Assembly: GCF_009931435.1 (NCBI RefSeq)
Contig: NZ_CP043414.1
From: Escherichia coli
GTDB taxonomy: Bacteria > Pseudomonadota > Gammaproteobacteria > Enterobacterales > Enterobacteriaceae
Direction: 5' to 3' (one strand)
DNA: 64,000 nt
The number at the start of each line of letters is the position of its first letter. Positions within the stretch are counted from its first letter, which is position 1. The notes under the pieces are model-generated. The model was not told where the DNA came from and ran no database searches. It saw nothing but the letters and a program-made list of their open reading frames with translations. Position numbers and translations under genes: made by a program. Positions 1 through 43,389 of this stretch are shown here, one piece after another.

Positions 1-1811
1 GCGCTTTGTGGCGCCGGAATTTTTTCGTAGATTTTTTCTCCGCTTTCCCGCCATTTTTCAAAACCAAGATGCCACAGTATTTGTTGCTCCGGTGTAAGCG
101 GTATTAAGTGTTTCTCCCAGCTTGCTTTTTTTATCGGCGGCAGGTCGGTAAACAATGTTTGTTTTGTCGCCTGCTGTTGGGCTATTTGCTGGAAGCGGGT
201 GACAAGGTAAGTACGGGTTAGTCTTTTGGCAATCTCGGGAGTGACATCAGAAACAGAAGGAACTGGAAGCACTGGAAGATCAAACACAGGCGTATTTTTC
301 TTTTTCTCTTTGGTCATCCAGGGCGGCGAAACAAACAGCTCCGGCAACATATCCACAGTGGCATATTCACATTCTTCAGCTACTGGCTGCGGACGACATT
401 CAGATAAGATGCCTGCCGCTTTAGCATTAACCCAGGGAATGACGTCACATACCAACTCTGGCCTGATGGTAATCAGTTTGATAAGTGCGTTACGCCACTG
501 TGCATCTTCGTGTATTGCAAGCAAAGTAGCATAAGCGGCAATAGCTGCAGCGGGATGTTTTTGACAGGCTTTGCTTAAGTATTCCAGGTGCTTTTTCTTG
601 CCAATCACAGCGAGGATCAGAATTTGAATCGCATCCGGGTGATTCGTTTTCCATAGCCATTTGACAAGATTTTCAGTCTCGCTGTTGCGCTCGAAAAGAT
701 AAGTGGGATTGTCAGAATGCTCTTCCGTAAACTCAAGAAGGATCTGGCTTACACCCCGAATTCCATTATTCGCCAGCAACATTGCCAGATAAGCGCGAAA
801 ATTACGAAAATCACGATACAACGGTGGGAAGTCGTATTTTTCCACTGTACTCAGAGCAGTATCATCGGTTATCACCAGTCTTAACCAGGTCATCGCCGGA
901 ACGTTTTGGTCTGCATAGCGTAGAGCCATAGCATTGGCAATATCCGGGCGTTCAGGGAGCAGTAACGCGGCAAAAGGTTGCCGTGCTGGAGATAGCGAGG
1001 GAATAGCCGCGAGTACTTTATCTACACAGCGTTGCCACTCATCTTCTGAAGTGAGTGAAAGATGATGACATAGACGTTGATGCCAACTAGGTAGCGATTC
1101 TGCTTCGTGATTAGGTGGAATGATGGTGGTTACTGCGCCTTTTACTGGTTTATATTTGAGTTGAATAGCGAGAAGGGCAATTTCAACGGCACTTTCCAGA
1201 CCACAGCGAATGACTAAGTCATCGACCAATTCATCTGCAGAGTAAGAGTTCCAAAAACTCCAAAGCAATGCTGCATCAGATTGCGCACTTCCTGTCTGTT
1301 GACTACCCAGAATTCGCATTTGTAACTCAGCAAACGCCTGCTGCCAGTTTTCTGGATAAGAACGGTAATTGTTGTCGGGATCATATGCCCTGGTGTTATC
1401 TGCAATACGCTTCCATATCTCACCGTCTTTGCGCAGATAATTGATCTCTCTGGGGCGAGAGCGATGTGGAAAAGCAAATCGGTTAATATCGTCGGTTAGC
1501 GGAATGGCTGCATCATCAGCCAGCCATGGGCGTTTGTTTTTACTCTCAGGTGAAGTTTCAACTTCAGGAGTGACTTTGGTGACGGGGGGGATATGCACGT
1601 TTGCCGAAGCGTCTTCCACATAGCCTTTTTTCGTTTTCTCAGCGATAAGCTTCAGTTCCGCTTTTTCCGCCGCCGCAGCATCCGCAAAGCTTTTTATCTG
1701 GCTTTGCCCTTGGGTGCCAACTTTTCCCCAACTGATATGCAACTCGTTACCTTGCTGCCCCACCGCCCAGAATTTATGCGATTTTTCGTCCTGATAGATA
1801 TAACTCTTCAT
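1..1811 (-). CDS. molR: WGR-domain protein, MolR-like; N-terminal ~603 codons, gene continues beyond window start
   Basis: ATG at 1811 on minus strand gives MKSYIYQDEKSHKFWAVGQQGNELHISWGKVGTQG (WGR-like N-terminus). Frame hand-checked at 1-360, 1020-1080, 1440-1480 and 1800-1811 with no stop or frame change; not every codon checked. Lies downstream of metG on the same strand as in K-12. Confidence 0.65.
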   Translation of the reverse strand, partial: MKSYIYQDEKSHKFWAVGQQGNELHISWGKVGTQGQSQIKSFADAAAAEKAELKLIAEKTKKGYVEDASANVHIPPVTKVTPEVETSPESKNKRPWLADDAAIPLTDDINRFAFPHRSRPREINYLRKDGEIWKRIADNTRAYDPDNNYRSYPENWQQAFAELQMRILGSQQTGSAQSDAALLWSFWNSYSADELVDDLVIRCGLESAVEIALLAIQLKYKPVKGAVTTIIPPNHEAESLPSWHQRLCHHLSLTSEDEWQRCVDKVLAAIPSLSPARQPFAALLLPERPDIANAMALRYADQNVPAMTWLRLVITDDTALSTVEKYDFPPLYRDFRNFRAYLAMLLANNGIRGVSQILLEFTEEHSDNPTYLFERNSETENLVKWLWKTNHPDAIQILILAVIGKKKHLEYLSKACQKHPAAAIAAYATLLAIHEDAQWRNALIKLITIRPELVCDVIPWVNAKAAGILSECRPQPVAEECEYATVDMLPELFVSPPWMTKEKKKNTPVFDLPVLPVPSVSDVTPEIAKRLTRTYLVTRFQQIAQQQATKQTLFTDLPPIKKASWEKHLIPLTPEQQILWHLGFEKWRESGEKIYEKIPAPQS

Positions 1812-1910
1812 CCGCGTTCCCTGTATTTATATCCAGTTATAAGCGGATGCTAGCAGTTAATGAAAAAAATTAAGAGCGTTGAACAAACAAGAAAACAACT
1901 TTAGGAATTC

Positions 1911-1940
1911 ATAAAGAAAAGGCGCTGTCGATGCAGCGCC
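1911..1940 (-). terminator. Probable rho-independent terminator of metG
   Basis: Inverted repeat ggcgctg/cagcgcc (about 1921-1940) followed on the minus-strand transcript by a U-rich run, directly after the metG stop. Confidence 0.5.
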
Positions 1941-1951
1941 TTGAAGGGGGA

Positions 1952-3985
1952 TTATTTCACCTGATGGCCCGGTTTAGCACCGGCATCCGGGCTTAGCAGG
2001 AAAATATCTTTCCCGCCAGGACCGGCAGCCATCACCATGCCTTCAGAGATACCGAAGCGCATTTTACGTGGTGCCAGGTTAGCCACCATAATGGTGTGAC
2101 GACCAATAAGTGCCTGCGGATCCGGGTAAGCAGAACGAATGCCGGAGAAGACATTGCGTTTTTCACCGCCGAGATCCAGTGTCAGGCGCAGCAGTTTGTC
2201 AGAACCTTCAACAAACTCTGCGTTTTCAATCAGCGCCACGCGCAGGTCAACTTTAGCGAAGTCGTCAAAGGTGATGGTTTCCTGAATCGGATCATCTGCC
2301 AGCGGGCCAGTCACGGGGGCGGCAGTGGCTTTCACTTCTTCTTTAGACGCTTCCACCAGTGCTTCAACCTGCTTCATATCGATGCGGTTATACAGCGCCT
2401 TGAACGGATTCACTTTGTGGCCCAGCAGCGGTTGCTGGATGCCATCCCAGGTCAGTTCCGTATTGAGGAATGCTTCTGCACGCTCGGTCAGTTTTGGCAG
2501 TACCGGCTTCAGGTAAGTCATCAGTACGCGGAACAGGTTAATGCCCATAGAGCAAATCGCCTGCAGGTCAGCATCGCGACCTTCCTGCTTCGCCACCACC
2601 CACGGAGCCTGTTCATCGACATAGCGGTTAGCCAGGTCAGCCAGTGCCATGATTTCGCGCACTGCTTTACCAAATTCACGGCTTTCCCATGCTTCACCAA
2701 TCACTTCAGCGGCATCCGTGAAGGTTTTGTACAACTGCGGGTCAGCCAGTTCGCTTGCCAGCACGCCGTCAAAACGTTTGTTGATAAAGCCTGCGTTACG
2801 GGACGCCAGATTAACCACTTTGTTGACGATATCGGCATTCACACGCTGAACGAAATCTTCCAGGTTGAGATCGATATCATCAATGCGCGAAGAGAGTTTC
2901 GCAGTGTAGTAGTAACGCAGGCTGTCAGCGTCAAAATGATTCAGCCAGGTGCTGGCTTTAATAAAGGTGCCGCGAGACTTGGACATCTTCGCGCCGTTCA
3001 CCGTTACATAGCCGTGAACAAACAGGTTGGTCGGCTTGCGGAAGTTGCTACCTTCCAACATGGCAGGCCAGAACAGGCTGTGGAAGTAAACAATATCTTT
3101 ACCGATGAAGTGGTACAGCTCGGCGGTGGAGTCTTTCTTCCAGTATTCATCGAAGCTTACGCTGTCGCCGCGCTTGTCACACAGATTCTTGAAAGAACCC
3201 ATGTAGCCAATCGGTGCGTCCAGCCAGACGTAGAAATATTTGCCCGGCGCGTTCGGAATTTCAAAACCGAAGTACGGTGCATCGCGGGAGATATCCCATT
3301 GTTGCAGGCCAGATTCAAACCACTCCTGCATTTTGTTTGCCACCTGCTCCTGCAACGCACCGCTGCGGGTCCATGCCTGCAGCATTTCGCTGAAAGAGGG
3401 CAGATCAAAGAAGAAGTGTTCAGAATCACGCATTACCGGGGTAGCGCCAGAAACCACCGATTTCGGCTCGATCAGTTCAGTCGGGCTATATGTTGCGCCG
3501 CAGACTTCACAGTTATCGCCGTATTGATCCGGTGATTTACATTTCGGGCAGGTGCCTTTCACAAAACGGTCCGGCAGGAACATGCCTTTTTCCGGATCGT
3601 ACAGTTGAGAGATGGTGCGGTTTTTAATAAAACCGTTTTCCTTCAGGCGAGTATAGATAAGCTCAGACAACTGACGGTTCTCTTCACTGTGCGTCGAGTG
3701 ATAGTTGTCATAGCTGATGTTAAAGCCTGCGAAATCAGTCTGATGCTCCTGACTCATTTCGCCAATCATCTGCTCCGGAGTGATACCAAGCTGCTGAGCT
3801 TTCAGCATGATTGGTGTACCGTGGGCATCGTCGGCGCAGATGAAGTTGACCTCGTGGCCGCGCATTCGCTGGTAACGGACCCAGACATCAGCCTGGATGT
3901 GCTCCAGCATATGGCCGAGGTGGATTGAGCCGTTAGCGTACGGCAGTGCGCACGTCACCAGAATTTTCTTCGCGACTTGAGTCAT
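1952..3985 (-). CDS. metG: Methionine--tRNA ligase
   Basis: 680-aa ORF with HIGH-type motif ([11 protein letters not shown]) and KMSKS motif. Start set at the internal ATG giving [10 protein letters not shown] (677 aa) from memory of K-12 MetG; the ORF could begin 3 codons upstream (MPTMTQ). Confidence 0.95.
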
Positions 3986-4152
3986 AGTAGGCATTACTTC
4001 TTTGTAGTGAAAAGGGCTTAGATAGTACCAAATGGGGCATGGTTACGTAAGTCCTGTGCAAGCATCTTATGATGCATTATTAGGTAAGTACTTAGCTGTT
4101 AACTTCAGGTAAACTAATAGCGATAAGTTATCTTTATAAATAAGGAGTCGGG

Positions 4153-5262
4153 ATGAACGAACAATCCCAGGCCAAATCACCAGAAGCCCTGCGCGCAATG
4201 GTCGCCGGGACACTGGCCAATTTTCAGCACCCAACCCTCAAGCATAACCTCACCACGCTGAAAGCGTTGCACCATGTCGCCTGGATGGACGACACGCTGC
4301 ATGTGGAACTGGTTATGCCGTTCGTATGGCATAGCGCGTTCGAAGAGTTAAAAGAGCAATGTAGCGCCGAACTGCTGCGCATTACCGGGGCGAAAGCTAT
4401 CGACTGGAAACTGTCGCACAATATCGCCACCTTAAAACGCGTGAAGAATCAGCCGGGAATTAACGGCGTGAAGAACATCATTGCGGTCAGCTCCGGTAAA
4501 GGCGGCGTGGGTAAATCCTCCACGGCGGTAAATCTGGCGCTGGCACTGGCGGCGGAAGGGGCGAAAGTCGGCATTCTGGACGCCGATATCTACGGCCCAT
4601 CAATACCCACCATGCTGGGCGCAGAAAATCAGCGTCCAACTTCGCCGGACGGTACCCATATGGCACCGATTATGTCTCATGGACTGGCAACCAATTCAAT
4701 TGGTTATCTGGTCACTGACGACAATGCGATGGTGTGGCGTGGTCCGATGGCGAGCAAGGCGTTAATGCAGATGTTGCAGGAAACCTTGTGGCCGGATCTC
4801 GACTATCTGGTGCTTGATATGCCGCCAGGCACCGGTGACATTCAATTGACACTGGCACAAAACATTCCAGTAACTGGCGCGGTAGTGGTCACCACCCCGC
4901 AGGACATTGCGTTGATCGATGCGAAAAAAGGCATTGTGATGTTCGAGAAAGTCGAGGTTCCGGTGCTCGGTATTGTCGAGAACATGAGTGTGCATATTTG
5001 CAGTAACTGTGGTCACCATGAACCGATTTTCGGTACCGGTGGTGCAGAGAAACTGGCCGAGAAATACCACACGCAGTTGCTGGGGCAGATGCCGTTACAC
5101 ATTTCCTTACGTGAAGATCTCGATAAAGGCACGCCAACAGTTATCAGCCGTCCGGAGAGCGAATTTACTGCTATCTACCGCCAGCTGGCTGACCGCGTTG
5201 CAGCCCAGCTTTATTGGCAGGGAGAAGTCATTCCTGGCGAGATTTCCTTCCGCGCGGTCTGA
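4153..5262 (+). CDS. mrp: Fe-S cluster carrier ATPase Mrp/ApbC
   Basis: 369-aa ORF with deviant Walker A (SSGKGGVGKSS) and CxxC (CSNCGHH); divergent from metG as in K-12. Confidence 0.95.
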   Translation: MNEQSQAKSPEALRAMVAGTLANFQHPTLKHNLTTLKALHHVAWMDDTLHVELVMPFVWHSAFEELKEQCSAELLRITGAKAIDWKLSHNIATLKRVKNQPGINGVKNIIAVSSGKGGVGKSSTAVNLALALAAEGAKVGILDADIYGPSIPTMLGAENQRPTSPDGTHMAPIMSHGLATNSIGYLVTDDNAMVWRGPMASKALMQMLQETLWPDLDYLVLDMPPGTGDIQLTLAQNIPVTGAVVVTTPQDIALIDAKKGIVMFEKVEVPVLGIVENMSVHICSNCGHHEPIFGTGGAEKLAEKYHTQLLGQMPLHISLREDLDKGTPTVISRPESEFTAIYRQLADRVAAQLYWQGEVIPGEISFRAV

Positions 5263-5290
5263 CGCGCATTAACCTTTTTGGTTGTTTTTT

Positions 5291-5335
5291 ATACACCGCA
5301 GAGATGTTACATTGATGCGGTGTATTTGTTTTTGC
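5291..5335 (+). terminator. Probable rho-independent terminator after mrp
   Basis: Hairpin acaccgca...tgcggtgt followed by atttgttttt. Confidence 0.5.
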
Positions 5336-5524
5336 CGCATTAATGAACACTTATTTAATGCTGCGAATATTCTGCGGACCTTCGTCCGAAACTCTATAAA
5401 GTCGATTGATCGTACAGGCAATGCATCATTATCATCCTTCGTGGCTGTGTAGTGGATGTACAGCTATAGTTTGTTATGCACTCATTCTATCCAGGCATAA
5501 CCTTTACTACAGGGATAACGTTCA

Positions 5525-5806
5525 ATGAATAAGTACTGGCTGTCAGGAATTATTTTTCTTGCCTATGGAATGGCTTCTCCCGCGTTCTCTTCACAGACTG
5601 CCACATTAACGATTAATGGCAGGATCAGTCCCCCAACATGCAGTATGGCTATGGTTAATGGTCAACCTCAACAGCATTGTGGTCAGTTAACGTATGATGT
5701 TGATACCCGTCATCAGGTTTCTTCGCCAGTCAAAGGTGTGACGACAGAAGTGGTTGTTGCAGGTAGCGATAGCAAACGTCGAATCGTGTTAAATCGCTAC
5801 GATTAA
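5525..5806 (+). CDS. yehE: Small secreted protein YehE
   Basis: 93-aa ORF with N-terminal signal peptide (MNKYWLSGIIFLAYGMASPAFS); position upstream of the yeh fimbrial genes. Confidence 0.75.
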   Translation: MNKYWLSGIIFLAYGMASPAFSSQTATLTINGRISPPTCSMAMVNGQPQQHCGQLTYDVDTRHQVSSPVKGVTTEVVVAGSDSKRRIVLNRYD

Positions 5807-6101
5807 TTTGCCACCCTGGTTTTTTAAGCGGATTTAGAAAGCTGAAATCATTCGTGTGAATGATTTCAGCTTTTTTATTGATATTAATAATACCATTTAA
5901 AAAAATCTGCATTAATTAATAGATGTGATAAATATTTAATATGCTTAAGTATTTGTTGTATTTATATTGCAATAGTTAATTTGTTTTAAATCAATAAAAC
6001 AATATGTTTACATTGCGGCAACTTTTTTGATGTGAGAAATTTGTTTCCAAGAGATACAGACTCTTAACAACCAAAAAATAAATTTTATTAAGGGACATAT
6101 T

Positions 6102-6644
6102 ATGAAACGTTCAATTATTGCTGCCGCTGTCTTTTCTTCTTTTTTTATGAGCGCTGGGGTATTTGCCGCAGACGTTGATACCGGAACATTAACCATTAAA
6201 GGGAATATTGCAGAATCTCCGTGTAAATTCGAAGCGGGTGGCGATTCAGTAAGTATTAATATGCCAACTGTACCAACCACTGTCTTTGAAGGTAAAGCTA
6301 AATACTCGACCTATGATGATGCAGTCGGTGTAACCAGCAGCATGTTAAAAATTAGCTGTCCGAAAGAAGTTGCTGGTGTAAAACTCTCGTTGATTACCAA
6401 CGATAAAATAACCGGAAACGATAAGGCGATAGCCAGTAGCAACGATACCGTGGGGTACTATCTCTATTTAGGTGATAACAGCGATGTCCTGGATGTTTCT
6501 GCACCTTTTAACATTGAAAGTTATAAAACAGCGGAAGGTCAATATGCTATTCCGTTTAAAGCAAAATACCTGAAGCTGACAGATAATTCAGTGCAATCAG
6601 GTGATGTGTTATCTTCTCTGGTTATGCGTGTGGCGCAGGATTAA
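6102..6644 (+). CDS. yehD: Fimbrial major subunit-like protein
   Basis: 180-aa ORF with signal peptide and conserved fimbrial Cys pair; first gene of a subunit-chaperone-usher-adhesin array. Confidence 0.85.
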   Translation: MKRSIIAAAVFSSFFMSAGVFAADVDTGTLTIKGNIAESPCKFEAGGDSVSINMPTVPTTVFEGKAKYSTYDDAVGVTSSMLKISCPKEVAGVKLSLITNDKITGNDKAIASSNDTVGYYLYLGDNSDVLDVSAPFNIESYKTAEGQYAIPFKAKYLKLTDNSVQSGDVLSSLVMRVAQD

Positions 6645-6724
6645 TAAATAAAATTTCAAATTTCTCCAGGTAATAAACATGGCCGCTATCCCCATGGCGG
6701 CCTTTTAATTTAAGAGGCATTAAG

Positions 6725-7399
6725 ATGAAAGGATTATTAGCTTTACTCATTTCTTCTATGGTCCTTCCTGCACATGCCGGTATTGTCATCTACGGGACGC
6801 GTATTATTTACCCGGCAGAAAACAAAGAAGTGACGGTGCAGTTGATGAATCAGGGAAACCGTTCTTCGCTGCTGCAGGCGTGGATTGATGATGGCGATAC
6901 GTCGTTACCACCAGAAAAAATTCAGGTTCCTTTCATGTTAACGCCACCAGTGGCAAAAATAGGGGCAAATTCCGGGCAGCAAGTAAAAATCAAAATTATG
7001 TCGAATAAACTGCCCACTAATAAAGAGAGCATTTTTTATCTGAATGTTCTGGATATTCCACCAAATAGTCCAGAGCAAGAGGGCAAGAATGCACTGAAAT
7101 TTGCAATGCAAAACAGAATCAAATTGTTTTACCGGCCTGCGGGTATTGCACCGGTAAATAAAGCGACATTTAAAAAGTTACTGGTAAATCGCAGTGGCAA
7201 TGGATTGGTGATAAAAAATGACTCAGCAAATTGGGTAACGATTTCGGATGTCAAAGCTAATAATGTCAAAGTCAATTATGAAACTATTATGATTGCCCCC
7301 TTAGAAAGTCAGAGTATTAATGTCAAAAGTAATAATGCGAATAACTGGTATCTGACCATTATCGATGACCATGGCAACTATATTAGTGACAAAATTTAA
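6725..7399 (+). CDS. yehC: Periplasmic fimbrial chaperone (PapD-like)
   Basis: 224-aa ORF with signal peptide; chaperone-like N-terminal region (IVIYGTRIIYPAENKEVTVQLMNQG). Confidence 0.85.
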   Translation: MKGLLALLISSMVLPAHAGIVIYGTRIIYPAENKEVTVQLMNQGNRSSLLQAWIDDGDTSLPPEKIQVPFMLTPPVAKIGANSGQQVKIKIMSNKLPTNKESIFYLNVLDIPPNSPEQEGKNALKFAMQNRIKLFYRPAGIAPVNKATFKKLLVNRSGNGLVIKNDSANWVTISDVKANNVKVNYETIMIAPLESQSINVKSNNANNWYLTIIDDHGNYISDKI

Positions 7400-7414
7400 T
7401 TGCAGGAGCTGCCT

Positions 7415-9895
7415 ATGTTGAGAATGACCCCACTTGCATCAGCAATCGTAGCGTTATTGCTCGGCATTGAAGCTTATGCAGCTGAAGAAACCTTTGATAC
7501 CCATTTTATGATAGGTGGAATGAAAGACCAGCAGGTTGCAAATATTCGTCTTGATGATAATCAACCCTTGCCGGGGCAGTATGACATCGATATTTATGTC
7601 AATAAGCAATGGCGCGGGAAATATGAGATTATTGTTAAAGACAACCCGCAAGAAACATGTTTATCAAGGGAAATTATCAAGCGGTTAGGCATTAATACCG
7701 ATAACTTTGCCAGCGGTAAGCAATGTTTAACATTTGAGCAACTTGTTCACGGTGGGAGATATACCTGGGATATCGGAGTTTTTCGTCTCGATTTCAGTGT
7801 ACCGCAGGCGTGGGTGGAGGAACTGGAAAGTGGCTATGTTCCACCGGAAAACTGGGAGCGGGGTATTAATGCGTTTTATACCTCTTATTATGTGAGTCAG
7901 TATTACAGCGACTATAAAGCGTCGGGTAATAGCAAGAGTACATATGTACGTTTTAACAGCGGGTTAAATTTACTGGGGTGGCAACTGCATTCTGATGCCA
8001 GTTTCAGTAAAACAAATAGCAATCCAGGGGTGTGGAAAAGCAATACCCTGTATCTGGAACGTGGATTTGCCCAACTTCTCGGCACGCTTCGCGTGGGTGA
8101 TATGTACACATCAAGCGATATTTTCGATTCTGTTCGCTTCAGCGGTGTGCGGTTGTTTCGTGATATGCAGATGTTGCCTAACTCGAAACAAAATTTTACT
8201 CCACGGGTGCAGGGGATTGCTCAGAGTAACGCGCTGGTAACGATTGAACAGAACGGTTTTGTGGTTTATCAGAAAGAGGTTCCTCCTGGCCCGTTTGCGA
8301 TTACAGATTTGCAGTTGGCCGGTGGTGGAGCAGATCTTGATGTCAGCGTGAAAGAGGCGGACGGTTCGGTAACCACCTATCTGGTGCCTTATGCAGCAGT
8401 GCCGAATATGCTGCAACCCGGCGTGTCGAAATATGATTTTGCGGCAGGTCGTAGCCATATTGAAGGGGCGAGCAAACAAAGTGATTTTGTTCAGGCGGGT
8501 TATCAGTATGGTTTTAATAACTTATTGACGCTGTATGGCGGATCGATGGTCGCGAATAATTATTACGCGTTCACTTTGGGCACAGGCTGGAATACACGCA
8601 TTGGTGCCATTTCCGTCGATGCCACGAAGTCGCATAGTAAACAAGACAACGGCGATGTGTTTGACGGGCAAAGTTATCAAATTGCCTACAACAAATTTGT
8701 GAGCCAAACGTCGACGCGTTTTGGTCTGGCGGCCTGGCGTTATTCGTCGCGTGATTACCGGACATTTAACGATCACGTTTGGGCAAACAATAAAGATAAT
8801 TATCGCCGTGATGAAAACGATATCTATGACATTGCCGATTATTACCAGAACGATTTTGGCCGTAAAAATAGCTTTTCTGCCAATATGAGCCAGTCATTGC
8901 CAGAAGGCTGGGGTTCTGTGTCCTTAAGTACGTTATGGCGAGATTACTGGGGGCGTAGCGGCAGCAGTAAGGATTATCAGTTGAGTTATTCCAACAACCT
9001 GCGACGGATAAGCTATACCCTCGCGGCAAGCCAGGCTTATGACGAGAATCATCATGAAGAGAAACGTTTTAATATTTTTATATCGATTCCCTTTGATTGG
9101 GGTGATGACGTTACGACGCCTCGTCGGCAAATATATATGTCTAACTCAACGACGTTTGATGATCAGGGTTTTGCCTCAAATAATACGGGATTATCGGGAA
9201 CCGTTGGAAGCCGGGATCAATTTAACTATGGGGTCAACCTGAGTCATCAGCATCAGGGAAATGAAACGACAGCTGGAGCGAATTTAACCTGGAACGCGCC
9301 GGTGGCAACGGTGAATGGCAGTTATAGTCAGTCGAGTACTTATCGACAGGCTGGAGCCAGTCTTTCAGGGGGCATTGTCGCCTGGTCGGGTGGCGTTAAT
9401 CTGGCGAACCGTCTTTCCGAAACGTTTGCTGTGATGAATGCGCCAGGAATTAAAGATGCTTATGTCAATGGGCAAAAATATCGCACAACAAACCGTAATG
9501 GAGTGGTGGTATACGACGGAATGACACCTTATCGGGAAAATCACCTGATGCTGGATGTGTCGCAAAGCGATAGCGAAGCAGAATTACGTGGCAACCGGAA
9601 CATTGCCGTCCCTTTTCGCGGCGCGGTTGTACTGGTTAATTTTGATACCGATCAGCGCAAGCCCTGGTTTATAAAAGCGTTAAGAGCGGATGGGCAACCA
9701 TTAACGTTTGGTTATGAAGTCAATGATATCCACGGTCACAATATTGGTGTTGTCGGTCAGGGAAGCCAGTTATTTATCCGCACTAATGATGTACCGCCAT
9801 CGGTTAATGTGGCAATTGATAAACAACAAGGGCTCTCATGCACAATCACCTTCGGTAAAGAGATTGATGAAAATAGGAATTATATTTGCCAGTAA
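7415..9895 (+). CDS. yehB: Outer-membrane fimbrial usher
   Basis: About 826 aa, usher-sized. Track ORF begins at a TTG at 7400; ATG at 7415 is preceded by aggag and gives MLRMTPLASA with a signal peptide. Confidence 0.9.
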   Translation: MLRMTPLASAIVALLLGIEAYAAEETFDTHFMIGGMKDQQVANIRLDDNQPLPGQYDIDIYVNKQWRGKYEIIVKDNPQETCLSREIIKRLGINTDNFASGKQCLTFEQLVHGGRYTWDIGVFRLDFSVPQAWVEELESGYVPPENWERGINAFYTSYYVSQYYSDYKASGNSKSTYVRFNSGLNLLGWQLHSDASFSKTNSNPGVWKSNTLYLERGFAQLLGTLRVGDMYTSSDIFDSVRFSGVRLFRDMQMLPNSKQNFTPRVQGIAQSNALVTIEQNGFVVYQKEVPPGPFAITDLQLAGGGADLDVSVKEADGSVTTYLVPYAAVPNMLQPGVSKYDFAAGRSHIEGASKQSDFVQAGYQYGFNNLLTLYGGSMVANNYYAFTLGTGWNTRIGAISVDATKSHSKQDNGDVFDGQSYQIAYNKFVSQTSTRFGLAAWRYSSRDYRTFNDHVWANNKDNYRRDENDIYDIADYYQNDFGRKNSFSANMSQSLPEGWGSVSLSTLWRDYWGRSGSSKDYQLSYSNNLRRISYTLAASQAYDENHHEEKRFNIFISIPFDWGDDVTTPRRQIYMSNSTTFDDQGFASNNTGLSGTVGSRDQFNYGVNLSHQHQGNETTAGANLTWNAPVATVNGSYSQSSTYRQAGASLSGGIVAWSGGVNLANRLSETFAVMNAPGIKDAYVNGQKYRTTNRNGVVVYDGMTPYRENHLMLDVSQSDSEAELRGNRNIAVPFRGAVVLVNFDTDQRKPWFIKALRADGQPLTFGYEVNDIHGHNIGVVGQGSQLFIRTNDVPPSVNVAIDKQQGLSCTITFGKEIDENRNYICQ

Positions 9896-9910
9896 TAATC
9901 GGGTGGCTCT

Positions 9911-10945
9911 ATGAAAATTCGCATAATGTTATTTATATTAATTATGATGGTAATGCCTGTGAGTTATGCAGCATGTTATGGAGAGTTATCTGCTCAGCAT
10001 AATTTGGCTGTTCAGGGGGATTTTGCACTGACTCAAACACAAACGGCGACATATGAGCATAATTTCAACGATTCATCATGTGTGAGTACAAATACCATCA
10101 TTCCCATGAATTCATCGGATATTATTGTTGGGCTGTATAACGATACTATTAAATTAAATTTACATTTTGAATGGATCAATAAAAACAACATCACGTTGTC
10201 AAATAATCAGACCAGTTTCACCAGTGGTTATTCGATAACGGTAACACCTGCGGCTAGTAATGCAAAAGTAAATGTTTCTGCGGGGGGCAGCGGTTCAGTG
10301 ATGATTAATGGTGTTGCGACATTATCCAGTGCTTCATCATCGACACGCGGGAGTGCTGCAGTACAATTTTTACTGTGTTTATTCGGTGGCAAGTCATGGG
10401 ATGCATGTGTAAATAGCTACAGAAATGCATTGGCACAAAATGCAGGTGTCTATTCCTTTAATCTGACATTGTCATACAACCCGATAACCACAACCTGCAA
10501 ACCGGACGATTTATTAATTACTTTAGAGAGTATTCCCATTTCACAATTACCAGCTACAGGTAACAAAGCAACAATAAATAGTAACAAAGGGGATATTGTT
10601 CTGCGTTGTAAAAACTTATTAGGTCAACAAAATCAAACATCACGGAAAATGCAGGTGTATTTATCAAGTTCTGATTTGTTAACCAACAGCAACACAATAC
10701 TGAAAGGTGCGGAAGATAATGGCGTAGGATTTATTCTTGAAAGTAATGGTTCTCCAGTCACACTTTTAAATATCACTAACAGCAGTAAAGAATACACAAA
10801 TTTAAAAGAAATTGCGGCAAAGTCAAAACTTACAGATACAACGGTTTCAATTCCGGTAACTGCCAGTTACTACGTCTACGATACAAATAAAGTTAAATCT
10901 GGCGCTCTGGAGGCTACCGCCTTAATCAACGTGAAATATGATTAA
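9911..10945 (+). CDS. yehA: Fimbrial adhesin-like tip protein
   Basis: 344-aa ORF with signal peptide, last gene of the yehDCBA array. Confidence 0.8.
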   Translation: MKIRIMLFILIMMVMPVSYAACYGELSAQHNLAVQGDFALTQTQTATYEHNFNDSSCVSTNTIIPMNSSDIIVGLYNDTIKLNLHFEWINKNNITLSNNQTSFTSGYSITVTPAASNAKVNVSAGGSGSVMINGVATLSSASSSTRGSAAVQFLLCLFGGKSWDACVNSYRNALAQNAGVYSFNLTLSYNPITTTCKPDDLLITLESIPISQLPATGNKATINSNKGDIVLRCKNLLGQQNQTSRKMQVYLSSSDLLTNSNTILKGAEDNGVGFILESNGSPVTLLNITNSSKEYTNLKEIAAKSKLTDTTVSIPVTASYYVYDTNKVKSGALEATALINVKYD

Positions 10946-10999
10946 TAACAAGTAAGACGAGCAAGTGGCTAATAATAAAAAATAACAAGGTGTCTGCAT

Positions 11000-11029
11000 T
11001 TCCCCCTCATGATGAGGGGGCTTTTTTTA
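11000..11029 (+). terminator. Probable rho-independent terminator after yehA
   Basis: Hairpin tccccctcat/gatgaggggg followed by a run of seven T. Confidence 0.55.
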
Positions 11030-11365
11030 GCGATGATAAAAAATCTCACCGTCGTAGGCTTTAATGATTTTACCGTCGGCATCGTTGATCAACACGTATG
11101 CGCCACCCATATAGGTCCAGTGCGTTCCGGCATCAGGAGCGGGCAGGTTACGTAACTGCCACTGCTTAATGTTGTACTCATCGGTGCGGTACATCTCTGG
11201 GACGGTATCGCCTGGTTTGAAATGCTTAAAGTCAGCAATGAAACTGCTTAACTCATACTTAGAAATTCCCGAGGTATTGGTCGAACCCGCGGTGGCTGGT
11301 GCGGCCCAGGCGGCACTGGTAACCAGCAATAGCGCACCCAGCAACATCTTATTTTTAATGGTCAT
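11027..11365 (-). CDS. rcnB: Periplasmic Ni/Co homeostasis protein RcnB
   Basis: Track ORF is 172 aa; internal ATG giving MTIKNKMLLGALLLVTSAAWA (signal peptide, 112 aa) matches my memory of RcnB; downstream of rcnA on the same strand. Confidence 0.85.
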   Translation of the reverse strand: MTIKNKMLLGALLLVTSAAWAAPATAGSTNTSGISKYELSSFIADFKHFKPGDTVPEMYRTDEYNIKQWQLRNLPAPDAGTHWTYMGGAYVLINDADGKIIKAYDGEIFYHR

Positions 11366-11569
11366 ATACTCTCCACTTTGGGGATCTGTAATATCAGTCG
11401 CATATCTTTCCTGCCATACAATATAACTGACAAGCGATATTTTGTTAGTGATCCCATGATTTCGTAAAAAGTGTAAATGAAAGGATGCCCTAAAAGCATC
11501 CTTAGCGAGCAGAGAGCCAGCGGAAATAGCTGATTTAAGAATCATCCTGGGCTGAAGATAACATGCAGC

Positions 11570-12391
11570 CTATCGCATAATGCCCATAAAGCCATGCACG
11601 CCCATATACACCCCAACTAAGCCAATCAACAGACTGGAAAAATAGGGCGCACGTTTAGCGAGAGTGTTAAATCCGCTCCAGCGTTTTGCGACCTGCTGAA
11701 CGCTGATTGCTGCGCCAACGCCTACGGTGACCAGCGTTAACGCCAGGCCAATGCTGAAACTGACGACCAGTGTTGCGCCCAGTGTCAGGGCTTTCAACTG
11801 AATACAAATCAACAGCACGGTAATTGCTGCCGGGCAGGGGATCAGTCCACCTGTTAACCCAAACAATAAAATTTGCCAGTTGGTCACTTCTCTGCCATTG
11901 AAGCGTCGTTTGATGTCATTGGCATGGGCTCGTGCATGAGCATCCTGATACTCCCCATGTTCGTGATGGTGATGATGTCCATGGTCGTGGTGATCTTCGT
12001 GATCGTGATGATACTCATGATCATGCCCGTGCATATTCTCCAGCCAGTTGCGTTCGCCGCGCCAGGTACGCCAGAACATCCAGAACGCGGTGCCAATAAT
12101 GATCACCGCGGAAATCAACTGGAGCCACGGTTCTGCAGATTGAGCAGTAAAACGTTTGCTGATCACCATCCCGCCAAAGGCAATCAACCAGACCACCGCG
12201 GTATGCGAAAGGGTTGCTGCCAGTCCGAGCATCACCGCCTGTTTAATGGTGCCTTTGATGGCGATGATAAACGCCGCCATCATCGTTTTTGAGTGCCCTG
12301 GTTCCAGGCCATGAAGCGCACCAAGTAAGATGGCGCTGGGAATGAAGAACCAGGCGTTTCCTTGCTGAAGAAGAGTGGTAAATTCGGTCAT
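11570..12391 (-). CDS. rcnA: Nickel/cobalt efflux permease RcnA
   Basis: 273-aa membrane protein with a His-rich loop (HGHDHEYHHDHEDHHDHGHHHHHEHGE). Confidence 0.9.
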   Translation of the reverse strand: MTEFTTLLQQGNAWFFIPSAILLGALHGLEPGHSKTMMAAFIIAIKGTIKQAVMLGLAATLSHTAVVWLIAFGGMVISKRFTAQSAEPWLQLISAVIIIGTAFWMFWRTWRGERNWLENMHGHDHEYHHDHEDHHDHGHHHHHEHGEYQDAHARAHANDIKRRFNGREVTNWQILLFGLTGGLIPCPAAITVLLICIQLKALTLGATLVVSFSIGLALTLVTVGVGAAISVQQVAKRWSGFNTLAKRAPYFSSLLIGLVGVYMGVHGFMGIMR

Positions 12392-12428
12392 GATAATAAT
12401 TCTTAGTATTAATTCGGCAATCCGATTC

Positions 12429-12463
12429 TACTCCCCCCCAGTACCTGATACTACCCCCCAGTA
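12429..12463. promoter_or_regulatory. Two tandem RcnR operator-like sites in the rcnA/rcnR divergent promoter region
   Basis: tactcccccccagta and tactaccccccagta seen directly, 5 nt apart; they fit the TACT-G-tract-AGTA operator form I recall for RcnR. Confidence 0.8.
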
Positions 12464-12511
12464 GAATAATAGTGCTATGATTTTTCATGTTCTTGTTAAC
12501 CAGGTGTTGCC

Positions 12512-12784
12512 ATGTCTCATACAATCCGTGATAAACAGAAACTGAAAGCGCGTGCCAGTAAGATTCAGGGTCAGGTCGTGGCGCTCAAGAAAATGCTCGA
12601 CGAGCCGCACGAATGCGCAGCTGTTCTACAACAGATTGCTGCTATCCGTGGCGCGGTAAACGGTCTGATGCGGGAAGTGATTAAAGGTCATCTGACGGAA
12701 CACATCGTTCACCAGGGGGATGAGCTAAAACGTGAAGAAGATCTGGATGTCGTTCTGAAGGTGCTGGATTCATATATCAAATAA
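12512..12784 (+). CDS. rcnR: Ni/Co-responsive repressor RcnR (CsoR/RcnR family)
   Basis: 90-aa [41 protein letters not shown]; divergent from rcnA. Confidence 0.9.
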
Positions 12785-12874
12785 TTTCACAACGTTATTG
12801 TAATCCCGCCGTTTTTCCTCGTTTACAACGTGTGCGCGGGACATTACCATCCATCTCTGCGATTCATCATCGCA

Positions 12875-12990
12875 ACCAAACGACTCGGGGTGCCCTTCTG
12901 CGTGAAGGCTGAGAAATACCCGTATCACCTGATCTGGATAATGCCAGCGTAGGGAAGTCACAGACCACCAGGTCATTGCTTCTTCACGTT
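12875..12990 (+). promoter_or_regulatory. TPP riboswitch (thi box) in the thiM leader
   Basis: ggggtgcccttctgcgtgaaggctgagaaatacccgtatcacctgatctggataatgccagcgtagggaa immediately upstream of thiM; conserved THI-element core (ctgaga, cctgatctggataatgccagcg). Boundaries approximate. Confidence 0.9.
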
Positions 12991-13006
12991 ATGGCAGGAG
13001 CAAACT

Positions 13007-13795
13007 ATGCAAGTCGACCTGCTGAGTTCCGCGCAATCAGCGCACGCGTTAAACCTCTTTTACCAACACTCTCCTCTTGTGCATTGCATGACCAATGATG
13101 TGGTGCAAACCTTTACTGCCAATACTTTACTGGTGCTCGGTGCATCGCCAGCGATGGTTATCGAAGCAGAAGAGGCCAGTCAATTTGCGGCTATCGCCAG
13201 TGCCTTGCTAATTAACGTCGGCACGCTGACGCAGCCACGCGCACAGGCAATGCGTGCTGCCGTTGAACAGGCAACACACTCCCAAACGCCCTGGACGCTT
13301 GATCCGGTCGCGGTTGGCGCACTCGATTATCGTCGCCGTTTTTGTCATGAACTTTTATCTTTTAAACCGACAGCGATACGTGGTAATGCTTCGGAAATCA
13401 TGGCATTAGCTGGCGTTGCTAATGGTGGACGGGGAGTGGACACCACTGACGCCGCGGCTAACGCGATACCTGCTGCACAAACACTGGCACGGGAAACTGG
13501 CGCAATCGTCGTGGTCACTGGCGAGGTGGATTATATTACCGATGGTCGTCGCACCGTTGGCATTCACGGCGGCAATTCGTTAATGACCAAAGTGGTAGGA
13601 ACTGGCTGTGCATTATCGGCAGTTGTCGCTGCCTGTTGTGCATTACCAGGCGATATGCTGGAAAATATCGCATCTGCCTGTCACTGGATGAAACAAGCCG
13701 GAGAACGCGCCGTCGCCAGAAGTGAAGGGCCTGGCAGTTTTGTTCCCCATTTTCTTGATGCGCTCTGGCAATTGACGCAGGAGGTGCAGGCATGA
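13007..13795 (+). CDS. thiM: Hydroxyethylthiazole kinase
   Basis: 262-aa ORF directly downstream of the thi box; 4-nt overlap with thiD. Confidence 0.95.
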
Positions 13796-14592
13796 AACGG
13801 ATTAACGCTCTGACAATTGCAGGCACTGATCCCAGTGGTGGCGCAGGAATTCAGGCAGATCTCAAAACGTTCTCTGCACTTGGTGCTTATGGTTGTTCAG
13901 TAATAACCGCCCTGGTAGCGCAAAACACCCGAGGCGTGCAATCGGTGTATCGCATAGATCCTGATTTTGTCGCCGCGCAGTTGGATTCGGTGTTCACTGA
14001 TGTGCGAATCGACACCACTAAAATCGGTATGTTGGCGGAAACCGATATTGTTGAAGCGGTGGCAGAACGGTTGCAACGTTATCAGATCCAAAACGTGGTA
14101 CTCGACACCGTTATGCTGGCAAAAAGCGGCGACCCTCTGCTTTCACCTTCGGCGGTTGCCACGCTGCGCAGTCGATTATTGCCACAGGTTTCATTAATAA
14201 CGCCAAACTTGCCCGAAGCTGCCGCCTTGCTCGACGCGCCACACGCGCGCAACGAACAGGAAATGCTGGAACAAGGGCGATCGCTGTTGGCGATGGGCTG
14301 TGGCGCAGTGCTAATGAAAGGTGGTCATCTGGATGATGAGCAAAGCCCGGACTGGCTGTTTACTCGCGAGGGGGAACAACGGTTTACTGCACCGCGCATT
14401 ATGACCAAAAACACCCACGGCACTGGTTGTACGCTCTCTGCGGCGTTGGCTGCACTGCGCCCGCGCCATACAAACTGGGCTGACACCGTCCAGGAGGCAA
14501 AAAGCTGGCTTTCATCGGCGTTAGCCCAGGCCGACACGCTGGAAGTTGGTCACGGTATTGGTCCGGTTCACCACTTCCACGCCTGGTGGTGA
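13792..14592 (+). CDS. thiD: Hydroxymethylpyrimidine/phosphomethylpyrimidine kinase
   Basis: 266-aa [30 protein letters not shown] (ribokinase-like HMP-P kinase). Confidence 0.95.
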
Positions 14593-14656
14593 GCACCTTA
14601 CTATAGCTGCTTTGGTTATTGTCAGTATTTAGCGCTGACATTCAGGGATGAAACCA

Positions 14657-15475
14657 ATGCAGCTGAGAATCACCAGTCGAAAAAAATTCACCGCTTTATT
14701 ATGCGCTCTTGGGCTAATTTCCATCGTTGCAATTTATCCGCGTCAGACGGTGAATTTTTTCTATTCGACAGCAATTCAGATTAAAGACTACATCCACTTC
14801 TACGGTTATCGTCCGGTTAAATCTTTCGCTATTCGCATTCCTGCCAGTTACACCATTCACGGAATAGATGTTTCGCGCTGGCAGGAGCGGATCGACTGGC
14901 AGCGGGTGGCAAAAATGCGCGATAACGGTATTCGCTTGCAATTTGCCTTTATCAAGGCGACGGAAGGCGAAAAACTGGTGGACCCGTATTTTTCGCGTAA
15001 CTGGCAACTAAGCCGCGAAAATGGCCTGTTGCGTGGGGCGTATCATTATTTTTCCCCGTCGGTATCCGCCTCAGTTCAGGCGCGATTATTTCTGCAAACG
15101 GTGGATTTTGCCCACGGTGATCTCCCTGCTGTGCTGGACGTAGAAGAGCGCGGAAAATTATCGGCGAAGGAATTACGCAAGCAGGTAAGTCAGTGGCTAA
15201 AAATGGTCGAAAAAAGCACAGGAAAAAAGCCGATTATTTATGCAGGCGCGACGTTTTATCACACGAATCTGGCGGGGTATTTCAATGAATATCCGTGGTG
15301 GGTGGCTCACTATTATCAACGTCGTCCGGACAATGACGGCATGGCCTGGCGCTTCTGGCAGCATTCCGACCGTGGACAGGTAGATGGCATTAATGGTCTG
15401 GTGGATTTTAATGTGTTTAATGGCACGGTGGAGGAGCTGCAGGGATTCGTTGATGGGATTAAAGAAACGCCTTAA
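14657..15475 (+). CDS. yegX: Glycoside hydrolase family 25 (lysozyme-like) protein
   Basis: Track ORF starts 14648; ATG at 14657 has better Shine-Dalgarno spacing and gives 272 aa. GH25-like motifs (GIDVSRWQ, FAFIKATEG). Confidence 0.8.
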   Translation: MQLRITSRKKFTALLCALGLISIVAIYPRQTVNFFYSTAIQIKDYIHFYGYRPVKSFAIRIPASYTIHGIDVSRWQERIDWQRVAKMRDNGIRLQFAFIKATEGEKLVDPYFSRNWQLSRENGLLRGAYHYFSPSVSASVQARLFLQTVDFAHGDLPAVLDVEERGKLSAKELRKQVSQWLKMVEKSTGKKPIIYAGATFYHTNLAGYFNEYPWWVAHYYQRRPDNDGMAWRFWQHSDRGQVDGINGLVDFNVFNGTVEELQGFVDGIKETP

Positions 15476-15526
15476 ATAAGAAGCAGTGATATACTCCCAC
15501 CAGACTCCCTGGCAGGAAAAAGACAA

Positions 15527-16273
15527 ATGGAACAAGCGCATACCCAGCTGATTGCCCAACTGAACGAACGTATTTTAGCGGCGGATAACACGCCGCTTTA
15601 TATTAAGTTTGCCGAAACGGTGAAAAATGCCGTGCGCAGCGGGGTGCTGGAACATGGCAATATTTTACCCGGCGAGCGCGATTTAAGTCAGTTAACCGGC
15701 GTTTCGCGCATTACGGTGCGCAAGGCGATGCAGGCGCTGGAAGAAGAGGGCGTGGTGACACGTTCGCGCGGCTACGGCACGCAGATTAATAACATCTTTG
15801 AATACTCGTTAAAAGAAGCGCGAGGATTTTCTCAGCAGGTGGTGTTGCGCGGGAAAAAGCCCGATACGCTATGGGTTAACAAGCGAGTGGTTAAATGCCC
15901 TGAAGAGGTGGCGCAGCAATTGGCGGTCGAAGCGGGTAGTGATGTCTTTTTGCTTAAGCGTATTCGCTATGTTGATGAAGAAGCGGTCTCTATTGAGGAG
16001 TCGTGGGTTCCGGCGCATTTAATTCATGATGTTGATGCCATCGGAATCTCTCTTTATGACTACTTCCGCAGTCAGCATATTTTTCCAAAGCGTACCCGTT
16101 CCCGCGTTAGCGCCCGGATGCCGGATGCCGAGTTTCAGTCACATATTCAATTAGATAGTAAAATACCGGTGCTGGTGATCAAGCAAGTGGCGCTTGACCA
16201 ACAGCAACGGCCTATTGAGTACAGCATCAGCCACTGTCGCAGTGATCTATACGTTTTTGTGTGTGAGGAGTAG
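15527..16273 (+). CDS. yegW: GntR-family transcriptional regulator
   Basis: 248-aa ORF with N-terminal GntR-type helix-turn-helix (LPGERDLSQLTGVSRITVRKAMQAL) and UTRA-like C-terminus. Confidence 0.85.
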   Translation: MEQAHTQLIAQLNERILAADNTPLYIKFAETVKNAVRSGVLEHGNILPGERDLSQLTGVSRITVRKAMQALEEEGVVTRSRGYGTQINNIFEYSLKEARGFSQQVVLRGKKPDTLWVNKRVVKCPEEVAQQLAVEAGSDVFLLKRIRYVDEEAVSIEESWVPAHLIHDVDAIGISLYDYFRSQHIFPKRTRSRVSARMPDAEFQSHIQLDSKIPVLVIKQVALDQQQRPIEYSISHCRSDLYVFVCEE

Positions 16274-17212
16274 TTCCTCGCGGGTTGGCGCGCAATCACC
16301 GCCGCGATGCCCGACAACCCACGACGCCACTGCATTGCCCAGCAATACGGCATCCGCCAGTGGCAAACCAGAGGCCAGTCCAGCTAATACGCCACCTGCA
16401 TGACTGTCGCCCGCCCCAATGGTGTCTACAACTTGCGTTGGAAATGCCGGGATGCAGCCAGAAGCGTTATTGCTGAAATACCATGCGCCTTCTTTATCGA
16501 GACGAACGATCAACGGCGCGGCAAATTTCTCCTGCCATTGCTTGCCAAGTGTTGTTATCTCTGCTGATAAAGCAAAACGTTCGGCGGCAATCTCACCCTC
16601 CTGACGATTGAGTGACACTAAAGGTCGACAGGCCATGATTCGCGCCAGTAATGCATCCGGGATATCGCCAATACGTGGGCCAAAATCGATGAACGGCGTC
16701 ACGTCTTGCAGACTCTCCAGCCATTCCACTAACAATTCACCGCAGGGCGAGGCCAGTTGATAACCAGAAAAATAGAGCAGGCTGCCAGGCGCAACGGTTA
16801 ATCGCGCCAACCATTCGCGATTCCACTGATTTTCCACACCACTGAACGACATAAACGTGCGTTCACCATCAGGCTCAACCAGCGCCAGACACCAGCCGTT
16901 ATCGCCTTCGGCGTTATCGATGAGGCTGATTAATCCTTCTTTCGCCATCCGGTTACGAATAATTTCCGCCCACACACCCTGGCCGAGCGGCAGGGCATTA
17001 CCCGCTTCGATACCGAGGCGCTTTAACGCCACGGCAATATTCAGTGCGCAGCCGCCAACGTTAACGCTCTGCTGTTTCAGTTCGATATCGCACCCACGCC
17101 AGGGGAGGGCATAAGCGTCGGCGATCACATCAATGACTGCCGCGCCGACGACCATCACCGGCTGACGCGTGGTTAATTCAGGCAGCAGCGTGTGTAATCG
17201 AGCGCCGCTCAT
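16247..17212 (-). CDS. yegV: PfkB-family sugar/nucleoside kinase
   Basis: 321-aa ORF with ribokinase-family signatures (GGCALNIAVALKRLG; DTIGAGDSHAGG). 3' end overlaps the convergent yegW by 27 nt. Confidence 0.85.
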   Translation of the reverse strand: MSGARLHTLLPELTTRQPVMVVGAAVIDVIADAYALPWRGCDIELKQQSVNVGGCALNIAVALKRLGIEAGNALPLGQGVWAEIIRNRMAKEGLISLIDNAEGDNGWCLALVEPDGERTFMSFSGVENQWNREWLARLTVAPGSLLYFSGYQLASPCGELLVEWLESLQDVTPFIDFGPRIGDIPDALLARIMACRPLVSLNRQEGEIAAERFALSAEITTLGKQWQEKFAAPLIVRLDKEGAWYFSNNASGCIPAFPTQVVDTIGAGDSHAGGVLAGLASGLPLADAVLLGNAVASWVVGHRGGDCAPTREELLLTHKNV

Positions 17213-41700: not shown

Positions 41701-41914
41701 CGGCAGAGGTCATGACATCCGGGCTGGCACCTGGGTAGAGCGTGACCACCTGAATGGTCGGATAGTCCACTTCCGGCAGCGCCGAAACGGGCAGGGCGCG
41801 ATAACCGATAATCCCGGCGAGTAAGATCGCCACCATCAGCAGCGTGGTGGCGACAGGACGCATAATAAACAGGCGCGACGGGCCGCCTGTGCTGCTCGGG
41901 GGTAACACCTGCAT
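38792..41914 (-). CDS. mdtB: RND multidrug efflux pump subunit MdtB
   Basis: 1040-aa RND transporter. Confidence 0.95.
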
Positions 41915-43161: not shown

Positions 43162-43214
43162 CGTTAAGAGTTTCTCTTCCTGAAACGTTTCGCGGAATGA
43201 TACTAGTGTAGCCA

Positions 43215-43232
43215 GCCAATAAGGGAGAAAAA
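43215..43232 (-). promoter_or_regulatory. BaeR-box-like sequence upstream of mdtA
   Basis: Minus-strand TTTTTCTCCCTTATTGGC, close to the BaeR binding consensus as I recall it (TTTTTCTCCATDATTGGC). Confidence 0.55.
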
Positions 43233-43389
43233 TGGAGGAATTATGAAACACTATCGGGAATCGTCTGAATGGCGGGCACATTTGCGAGCACGCATCCAGT
43301 AATAACACAGGAAACTATTTTATCTACGCGTTAGCGATGGACTGCATACAGGGCGAAAGGAGGTAAGCCGCAGATTTCAGCCGGATGCT

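Follow-up and report, generated by a model that had tools for sequence, protein, structure and literature searches.

An intact yehDCBA pilus operon in Escherichia coli and the parts of its AT-rich upstream spacer

We analysed a 64-kilobase (kb) stretch of DNA from the Escherichia coli contig NZ_CP043414.1, referred to here as the window, with emphasis on a fimbrial gene cluster at positions 6102–10945 and on the AT-rich spacer in front of it. The cluster is, with high confidence, the intact Yeh pilus operon yehDCBA of E. coli. This identification is correct but ordinary, the operon being already known: the operon itself, its silencing in strain K-12, the structure of its adhesin and a ligand have all been published. 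It carries little weight as a discovery, and its value lies in annotation, namely that this genome holds a complete Yeh-type (pectin-binding type) allele that is neither of the Yhl type nor broken. The present work resolves the spacer into a terminator, variable AT-rich DNA, a conserved core and a predicted promoter. It further adds a hairpin between yehD and yehC in all orthologues examined, a typing of the allele, and two leads that concern the small upstream protein YehE and the allelism of Yeh and Yhl. A pilin-like YehE, the conserved core and the Yeh and Yhl alleles would bear on how a ‘cryptic’ pilus is switched on and on how adhesin diversity is maintained.

Yeh is a classical chaperone–usher pilus whose genes occupy their ancestral site, flanked by apbC/yehE and rcnB. 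It is placed in the gamma-4 clade (PMC12778044, PMC7098969) and described as a core-associated fimbrial type that is orthologous to Salmonella Stc (PMC3559732). Between positions 4153 and 12784 the gene order is apbC, yehE, yehD, yehC, yehB and yehA on the plus strand, rcnB and rcnA on the minus strand, and rcnR on the plus strand. Comparison of RefSeq annotation places the locus between apbC (mrp)/yehE and rcnB (yohN), as in E. coli K-12, Citrobacter and Salmonella. A megablast search with positions 5200–11100 as the query matched 5,423 of 5,426 complete E. coli genomes, in which the annotated features bear the same gene names. The yeh locus is present in 5370 of the 5426, and in 4562 one uninterrupted match spans at least 80% of the query. 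The lengths of the genes from yehE to yehA (282, 543, 675, 2481 and 1035 base pairs (bp)) are identical in the RefSeq coordinates of three representative strains. RefSeq synteny and NCBIfam models thus bear out the names yehDCBA, the gene order and the integrity that an earlier reading, made from the window alone (the sequence-only reading), had assigned to the cluster.

Exact translation of yehD, yehC, yehB and yehA revealed neither stops nor frameshifts, including in the usher and the chaperone, where the sequence-only reading had asked that frameshifts be sought. Its description of a complete subunit–chaperone–usher–adhesin set with intact signal peptides holds, as all four open reading frames are uninterrupted, carry the corresponding Pfam domains and begin with Sec-type signal peptides. 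These end VFA|A (YehD), AHA|G (YehC), AYA|A (YehB) and SYA|A (YehA); the first three cleavage sites were read by eye, and that of YehA coincides with the first residue of the adhesin domain that was crystallised. The gaps between yehC and yehB and between yehB and yehA are 15 nucleotides each. The operon genes are poor in guanine and cytosine (G+C), at 37–46% overall and 33–45% at third codon positions, compared with 58–62% at third positions in apbC, rcnB and rcnA. Ratios of nonsynonymous to synonymous substitution rates (dN/dS) relative to the O157:H7 allele are 0.075 for yehD, 0.084 for yehC, 0.057 for yehB, 0.24 for yehA and 0.28 for yehE, which places all five under purifying selection. 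The ApbC protein is 100% identical to that of the O157:H7 allele.

The individual proteins have the features expected of their roles. The major pilus subunit, YehD (6102–6644, plus strand; 180 amino acids; YehA in the UTI89 nomenclature), scores 31.2 bits against PF00419 (Fimbrial; cut-off 25.6) and has the pilin donor-strand motif TLTIKGNI, a Cys41–Cys86 disulfide pair and a glycine at −14. YehC (6725–7399, plus strand; 224 amino acids) is a periplasmic PapD-like chaperone (PapD_N, 143.1 bits; PapD_C, 34.4 bits) in which the cleft residues, Arg8 and Lys112 in PapD numbering, are mature Arg8 and a Lys115 that lies within the motif IKLFYRP. The outer-membrane usher, YehB (7415–9895, plus strand; 826 amino acids), lacks any internal stop and matches PapC_N, Usher over positions 1–549 of 549 (653 bits), PapC_C and the Yeh-specific NCBIfam model NF011763 (1750 bits; cut-off 933). 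Its true start is the ATG at 7415, which is preceded by a CAGGAG ribosome-binding site at 7403–7408; the mechanically called open reading frame opens at a TTG at 7400.

YehA (9911–10945, plus strand; 344 amino acids; YehD in the UTI89 nomenclature) is a two-domain tip adhesin, with a receptor-binding domain at 9971–10489 and a pilin domain at 10490–10942 on the plus strand. The Fimbrial domain PF00419 matches residues 184–344 only, and the Yeh-specific NCBIfam model NF011788 matches with 663 bits (cut-off 395). The receptor-binding domain of the UTI89 adhesin has been solved and is reported to have an α-helical flap and to bind pectin (Tamadonfar et al. 2026, PMC12778044). The same report describes a contribution of the Yeh pilus to gut colonisation and uses gene letters in reverse, with A the subunit and D the adhesin, such that K-12 YehA is UTI89 YehD (PMC12778044). 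Residues 21–193 of the window protein match this structure (PDB 9N4G, E = 5.9e-102) with 162 of 173 residues identical (94%). Both disulfides are kept, as are S49, W143, Y150 and R151. Because of this identity and the retained key residues, the YehA of the window is presumably also a pectin-binding adhesin with an α-helical flap. The eleven substitutions relative to 9N4G are S4G, V8A, V13A, M25T, T44I, S47N, P48S, T69I, V89I, G107S and L138F. Two of them, S47N and P48S, adjoin S49, a residue of the proposed pocket lip; L138F precedes W143 by five residues.

The gene immediately upstream of the operon raises the question of whether four genes are the whole unit. This gene, yehE (5525–5806, plus strand), stands immediately upstream of yeh-type operons and encodes a 93-residue secreted protein of the DUF2574 family (PF10836, 172.7 bits over residues 1–93 of 93). 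The functional unit could instead be the five genes yehEDCBA, with YehE a miniature pilin-like protein in Yeh biogenesis, for example a cap or terminator bound by the chaperone, or an assembly modulator, that would offer a donor strand. We regard this possibility as unlikely, although it survives better than the other alternatives considered below. In its favour, residues 1–42 of YehE are homologous to residues 1–44 of YehD, a stretch that comprises the signal peptide, the donor strand and the first cysteine (hhalign 95.7%, E = 9.7e-9), and YehD in turn matches DUF2574 (E = 7.9e-4). The relationship is significant by profile comparison alone, and a direct BLASTP comparison of the two proteins does not reach significance (E = 0.51). 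The best match of YehE to a solved structure is to the same part of FimG, although it is weak (E = 0.13). At the C-terminus, YehE has the pilin hallmarks of a glycine at −14 and a tyrosine at −2 within a near-invariant IVLNRYD; the penultimate tyrosine is invariant in 13 family members and the final aspartate nearly so. The length of YehE is conserved, its dN/dS is well below 1 at the value given above, and yehE has a yeh-type operon as its neighbour at all Escherichia, Citrobacter and Salmonella loci that we examined. At comparison loci L009 and L010 it still lies beside a yeh-type operon despite a divergent orientation and a different genomic context. One group’s Yeh expression clone is reported to have started at the yehE ATG (PMC7098969).

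Several observations argue against the five-gene unit. One is that yehE owns an intrinsic terminator (5836–5880, plus strand), identified by a terminator scan as a hairpin of 13–18 bp followed by a T-run. We assessed this hairpin by covariation over 12 orthologues from Escherichia, Citrobacter, Salmonella and two further enterobacterial sources. In this set pairing is kept in 95.5% of cells, and both partners have changed in 7 of 13 pairs; no shuffle out of 500 was as good, and slid registers pair at no more than 44%. With a covariation-supported terminator, yehE transcription therefore ends separately. In addition, YehE has no PF00419 match, and its mature form of about 70 residues amounts to half a pilin fold (PF00419 spans about 150 residues). 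An AlphaFold model of YehE alone is poor (predicted local distance difference test (pLDDT) 58.7) and too weak for a fold search. A model of a YehC–linker–YehE fusion from a 14-row paired alignment (mean pLDDT 50, about 30 in the chaperone N-domain) is uninformative on binding. Klebsiella-type genomes have yehE alone, with no adjacent pilus operon, and published work treats the four genes as the complete operon (PMC12778044).

A more specific proposal, which we hold to be slightly less probable again, is that YehE is a mini-pilin derivative that has kept signal peptide and donor strand, together with a chaperone-recognition motif at its C-terminus, and lacks the fold body. Such a protein might act as a fifth Yeh/Stc component, for example as a cap, a terminator or a chaperone-titrating modulator. 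If this is so, the published description of a ‘minimal four-gene’ operon is incomplete. The family is small, with 31 cluster representatives among 1.8 billion proteins in an exhaustive HMMER search. No recognisable full-length pilin is among these 31, five of which, proteins of 849–3155 amino acids that match through multiple short stretches, were not themselves examined. We found no discussion of the YehE family in the literature searched. At the DNA level, short repeats tie the 5′ part of yehE to yehD, with ACATTAACGATTAA at 5603 and ACATTAACCATTAA at 6186. The lone homologues in Klebsiella spallanzanii-like genomes (L011/L012 7001–7276 and L023 459–734) are 37–42% identical to YehE and follow closely behind a complete rRNA operon.

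The spacer between yehE and yehD (5807–6101) is 295 bp long and has a G+C content of 24.7%, compared with 50.8% for the window. Nowhere else in the 64 kb does an equally long stretch drop below 30%. Of about 63,700 sliding segments of 295 bp, only 67 are equally low in G+C, and all of them fall within this single valley. The spacer contains nine runs of 8–19 bp made up of A and T only. The sequence-only reading had called this region strongly AT-rich with A/T tracts, and it is indeed the deepest composition valley in the window. The same reading had taken the whole of 5807–6101 to be a promoter region, and that description can be kept in part: a conserved core and a predicted promoter lie inside it, whereas 5836–5880 is the yehE terminator. 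The first 75 bp or so, a quarter of the spacer at its 5′ end, therefore serve as terminator to yehE and are not promoter. Beyond the terminator lies a variable segment (5881–5962) that, at 16% G+C, is the most AT-rich part of the spacer and is less conserved than the adjoining terminator and core. This segment is the likeliest platform for an H-NS filament, a binding role that we infer from the K-12 literature.

Downstream of the variable segment is a conserved 60-bp core (5963–6022, plus strand; TATATTGC..TTTAAATCAATAAAACA..TTTACATTGCGGCAAC). Mean column identity over 14 orthologues is 88%. When the window is compared with seven loci from other genera or sources, column identity in the core is still 86%; YehD protein identity at these seven loci is 29–36% in six and 60% in L009. 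Within the core, TTTAAATCAA and ACATTG are invariant in the 14 orthologues, and the surrounding AT-rich DNA evolves fast. The core may be the site of a specific regulator that acts on top of H-NS, or an UP-like element.

The core overlaps the −35 element of a predicted yehD promoter of the extended −10 type (6013–6041, plus strand), which comes from a weight-matrix scan. Its predicted parts are a −35 hexamer TTGCGG at 6013–6018, a 17-bp spacer, a TG at 6033–6034 and a −10 hexamer GAAATT at 6036–6041, with a start at about 6048. When each orthologue was scanned separately, the promoter at alignment columns 242–244 ranked top in 11 of 14 and among the top three in all 14, of which the seven Escherichia sequences are near-identical here and not independent. 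The yehD promoter at 6013–6041 is a weight-matrix prediction only. Further downstream, the yehD ribosome-binding site (6090–6095) reads AAGGGA in the window, and the other 13 aligned sequences have AGGAA (AAGGAA in twelve). A conserved RNA structure in the 5′ leader was considered and rejected, as RNAalifold gave no consensus over the 14 orthologues and an AAGAG/CTCTT hairpin was kept inconsistently. An Rfam search of 5000–11600 at permissive E-values gave chance-level matches on two terminator hairpins only.

The sequence-only reading had proposed that the AT-rich region is of the kind silenced by nucleoid proteins, which agrees with published H-NS data for K-12; for the present strain, H-NS silencing of yehDCBA is inferred. 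In K-12, yehDCBA is listed as cryptic and H-NS-regulated, is raised 3.6-fold on SlyA over-production and is functional when expressed constitutively (PMC5797941, which summarises Korea et al. 2010). The K-12 yehD/yehE spacer is among 78 ‘promoter islands’ that were scored as H-NS-bound and as lying in predicted genomic islands (PMC3661553). The K-12 yeh locus is also described as a static domain of extended protein occupancy (bioRxiv 10.1101/2024.06.20.599902). Over-production of BolA is reported to induce yehD and yehC (PMC4337573). After forced expression of other Yeh alleles, surface filaments are reported to assemble and to be visible by electron microscopy (PMC7098969).

Five points weigh against a silenced operon read from one promoter in the core. 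First, the hexamers of the predicted yehD promoter, TTGCGG and GAAATT, are weak. Second, a simple consensus scan placed its sole spacer promoter elsewhere, at 5878–5906. Third, 5807–6101 shows no enrichment of the H-NS consensus TCGATAAATT, with two matches of two mismatches each. Fourth, loss of protein occupancy alone is reported to have failed to induce yehDCBA (bioRxiv 10.1101/2024.06.20.599902), and a specific activator may therefore be needed as well. Fifth, promoter fusions of the O157 allele are reported to be active in static lysogeny broth (LB), with higher activity at 28 °C (Low 2006, cited in PMC7098969). The last of these bears on the word ‘cryptic’, which the sequence-only reading had also used: it stands in so far as the operon is so listed for K-12, but the promoter-fusion activity in O157, the induction by BolA and the role in gut colonisation mark expression as conditional.

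In an alternative account, the spacer is no more than a compositional residue of foreign-type DNA that holds no dedicated control signals; silencing is generic, and transcription could begin at any of many weak overlapping promoters. The catalogued promoter islands are of this kind, being defined by Panyukov and Ozoline as at least 8 start points predicted by PlatProm per 100 bp over at least 300 bp, and the K-12 counterpart of the spacer is catalogued among them with suppressed output. The simple consensus scan, which is not PlatProm, found only one promoter site in the spacer of the window. The alternative account also fits the G+C-poverty of the whole operon and the lower conservation of the most AT-rich segment, 5881–5962. 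We nevertheless consider this account improbable. The core at 5963–6022 keeps its column identity across genera while YehD has mostly diverged to 29–36%, unconstrained spacers would not align at such distance, and a single predicted promoter position is conserved.

Many chaperone–usher operons, such as the fim and pap systems, are phase variable, and an invertible element like that of fim or Dam/Lrp methylation like that of pap could in principle set yeh expression, but such a switch is very unlikely here, as 5807–6101 has no GATC site (about 1.2 expected) and no flanking inverted repeats that would fit an invertible segment, and recombinase and local regulator genes are absent nearby. Equally hard to sustain is the view that yehDCBA is a decaying remnant that merely looks intact: broken copies do occur in other strains, including an O157:H7 usher with an internal stop, IS1 insertions at the yeh locus of several other genomes (IS1 transposase genes are annotated in the matched region) and a yehA in E. 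coli E69 that is split by an insertion of about 0.76 kb (L015 11388–13024), a natural knock-out, but the window copy has no stops or frameshifts, a dN/dS far under 1 for every gene, and retained chaperone catalytic and adhesin structural residues.

Two further hairpins accompany the intact operon. The first, a G+C-rich hairpin between yehD and yehC (6681–6702, plus strand), is followed by TTTTAATTT. Its stem is unchanged even in the 85%-identical O157 allele, in which the loop and flanks differ. We folded the corresponding interval from 13 sequences (the window, L002, L004, L005, L007, L009, L013, L014, L016, L017 and L019–L021), and in all 13 a strong G+C-rich hairpin separates the subunit gene from the chaperone gene. 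Across orthologues the stems are wholly unrelated in sequence and a U-tract is usually absent. On the model of other pilus operons, the hairpin at 6681–6702 is most likely a partial terminator or an mRNA-stabilising element, which would give more subunit message relative to the message for the assembly genes. The second hairpin (11002–11020; CCCCCTCAT/ATGAGGGGG) closes the operon. It was found by the terminator scan between the convergent yehA and rcnB and has T-runs on both strands; its stem is invariant and its loop variable across four alleles.

These elements suggest how the operon might work. Transcription would start from the promoter in the conserved core at about 6013–6041. H-NS-type nucleoid proteins would coat the surrounding DNA of 16–25% G+C and the G+C-poor operon body and so keep the operon off in standard culture, and high SlyA, high BolA or a lower temperature, which are published conditions, would raise expression. 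The upstream yehE would be insulated by its own terminator, and the hairpin after yehD would probably lift the subunit message over that for the assembly proteins. The steps of pilus assembly are established chaperone–usher biology. Sec would export YehD, YehC, YehB and YehA, and YehC would complete the subunit folds, with Arg8 and Lys115 anchoring the subunit C-terminus. The usher YehB would recruit the two-domain adhesin YehA first and then polymerise YehD beneath it by donor-strand exchange.

Comparison with better-known pili shows which parts of this system are shared. Type 1 (fim) and P (pap) pili have in common with Yeh the chaperone–usher assembly logic, a two-domain tip adhesin and a hairpin after the major-subunit gene. 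Unlike them, Yeh has a minimal set of four genes and no adaptor or terminator subunits, dedicated regulators, invertible switch or Dam sites. The Stc cluster (stcABCD) of Salmonella enterica subsp. arizonae has the orthologous order apbC, yehE homologue, subunit, chaperone, usher, fourth gene and rcnB. Its usher and chaperone are 81% and 71% identical to those of the window, and the cluster has retained the promoter core and a hairpin at both positions; by contrast, the major subunit is only 34% identical, and for the fourth gene no similarity to the Yeh or Yhl adhesin could be detected. The yehDCBA operon of K-12 has the same locus, gene order, gene lengths and spacer architecture as the window. 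Identity to the proteins of a K-12-like strain is 99.4% for YehD, 97.3% for YehC, 97.6% for YehB and 93.6% for YehA. The window holds an allele distinct from that of K-12, with the adhesin the most divergent gene; its receptor-binding domain differs from that of UTI89 Yeh by the eleven substitutions listed above.

A much larger difference in the adhesin separates the window from the O157:H7 strain Z570 (phylogroup E), whose ‘Yhl’ cluster lies in the same apbC–yehE…rcnB locus with the same five-gene layout. The Z570 usher is 92% identical to the window YehB, and the promoter core and hairpins are common to both. The Z570 adhesin is only 35% identical to the window YehA overall and 21% in the receptor-binding domain. 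This adhesin (L005 6309–7343) is the protein crystallised as ‘YhlD’ (PDB 8V9V, E = 2.4e-111). Because YhlD is encoded at the apbC–rcnB locus of Z570, Yeh and Yhl are, as judged from these sequences, alternative alleles at one locus in that strain. The Yhl adhesin is reported to bind colonic mucosa and not luminal plant material, and the 2026 paper treats Yeh and Yhl as two pili, with some strains having both (PMC12778044). Elsewhere in the genus, E. albertii and E. whittamii have a Yeh-type adhesin, and Escherichia sp. MOD1-EC7003 and sp. E1V33 have a Yhl-type one. The Z570 usher (L005 3818–6298) is annotated as a pseudogene, and translation confirms one internal stop. Yeh filaments have been reported from the cloned ECs2914–2918 cluster of O157 Sakai (PMC7098969).

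Among complete E. coli genomes, about 4,900 fall in a band of 95–99% identity at the yeh locus and about 330 in a band of 80–90%. The O157 genomes among the matches listed are in the 80–90% band. The DNA identity of the yeh operon of the window to any complete RefSeq E. coli genome is at most 98.9%, and the flanks likewise stay below 99%. The flanks at 1–5200 and 11000–17000 are only 90–95% identical to most genomes, compared with 95–99% for 40000–46000. The best-matching strain differs between segments 1–5200, 5200–11100, 11000–17000 and 40000–46000. By these measures the yeh neighbourhood looks mosaic. Relative to the nearest genome, the adhesin is again the most divergent gene, with a protein identity of 96.8% and a dN/dS of 0.13.

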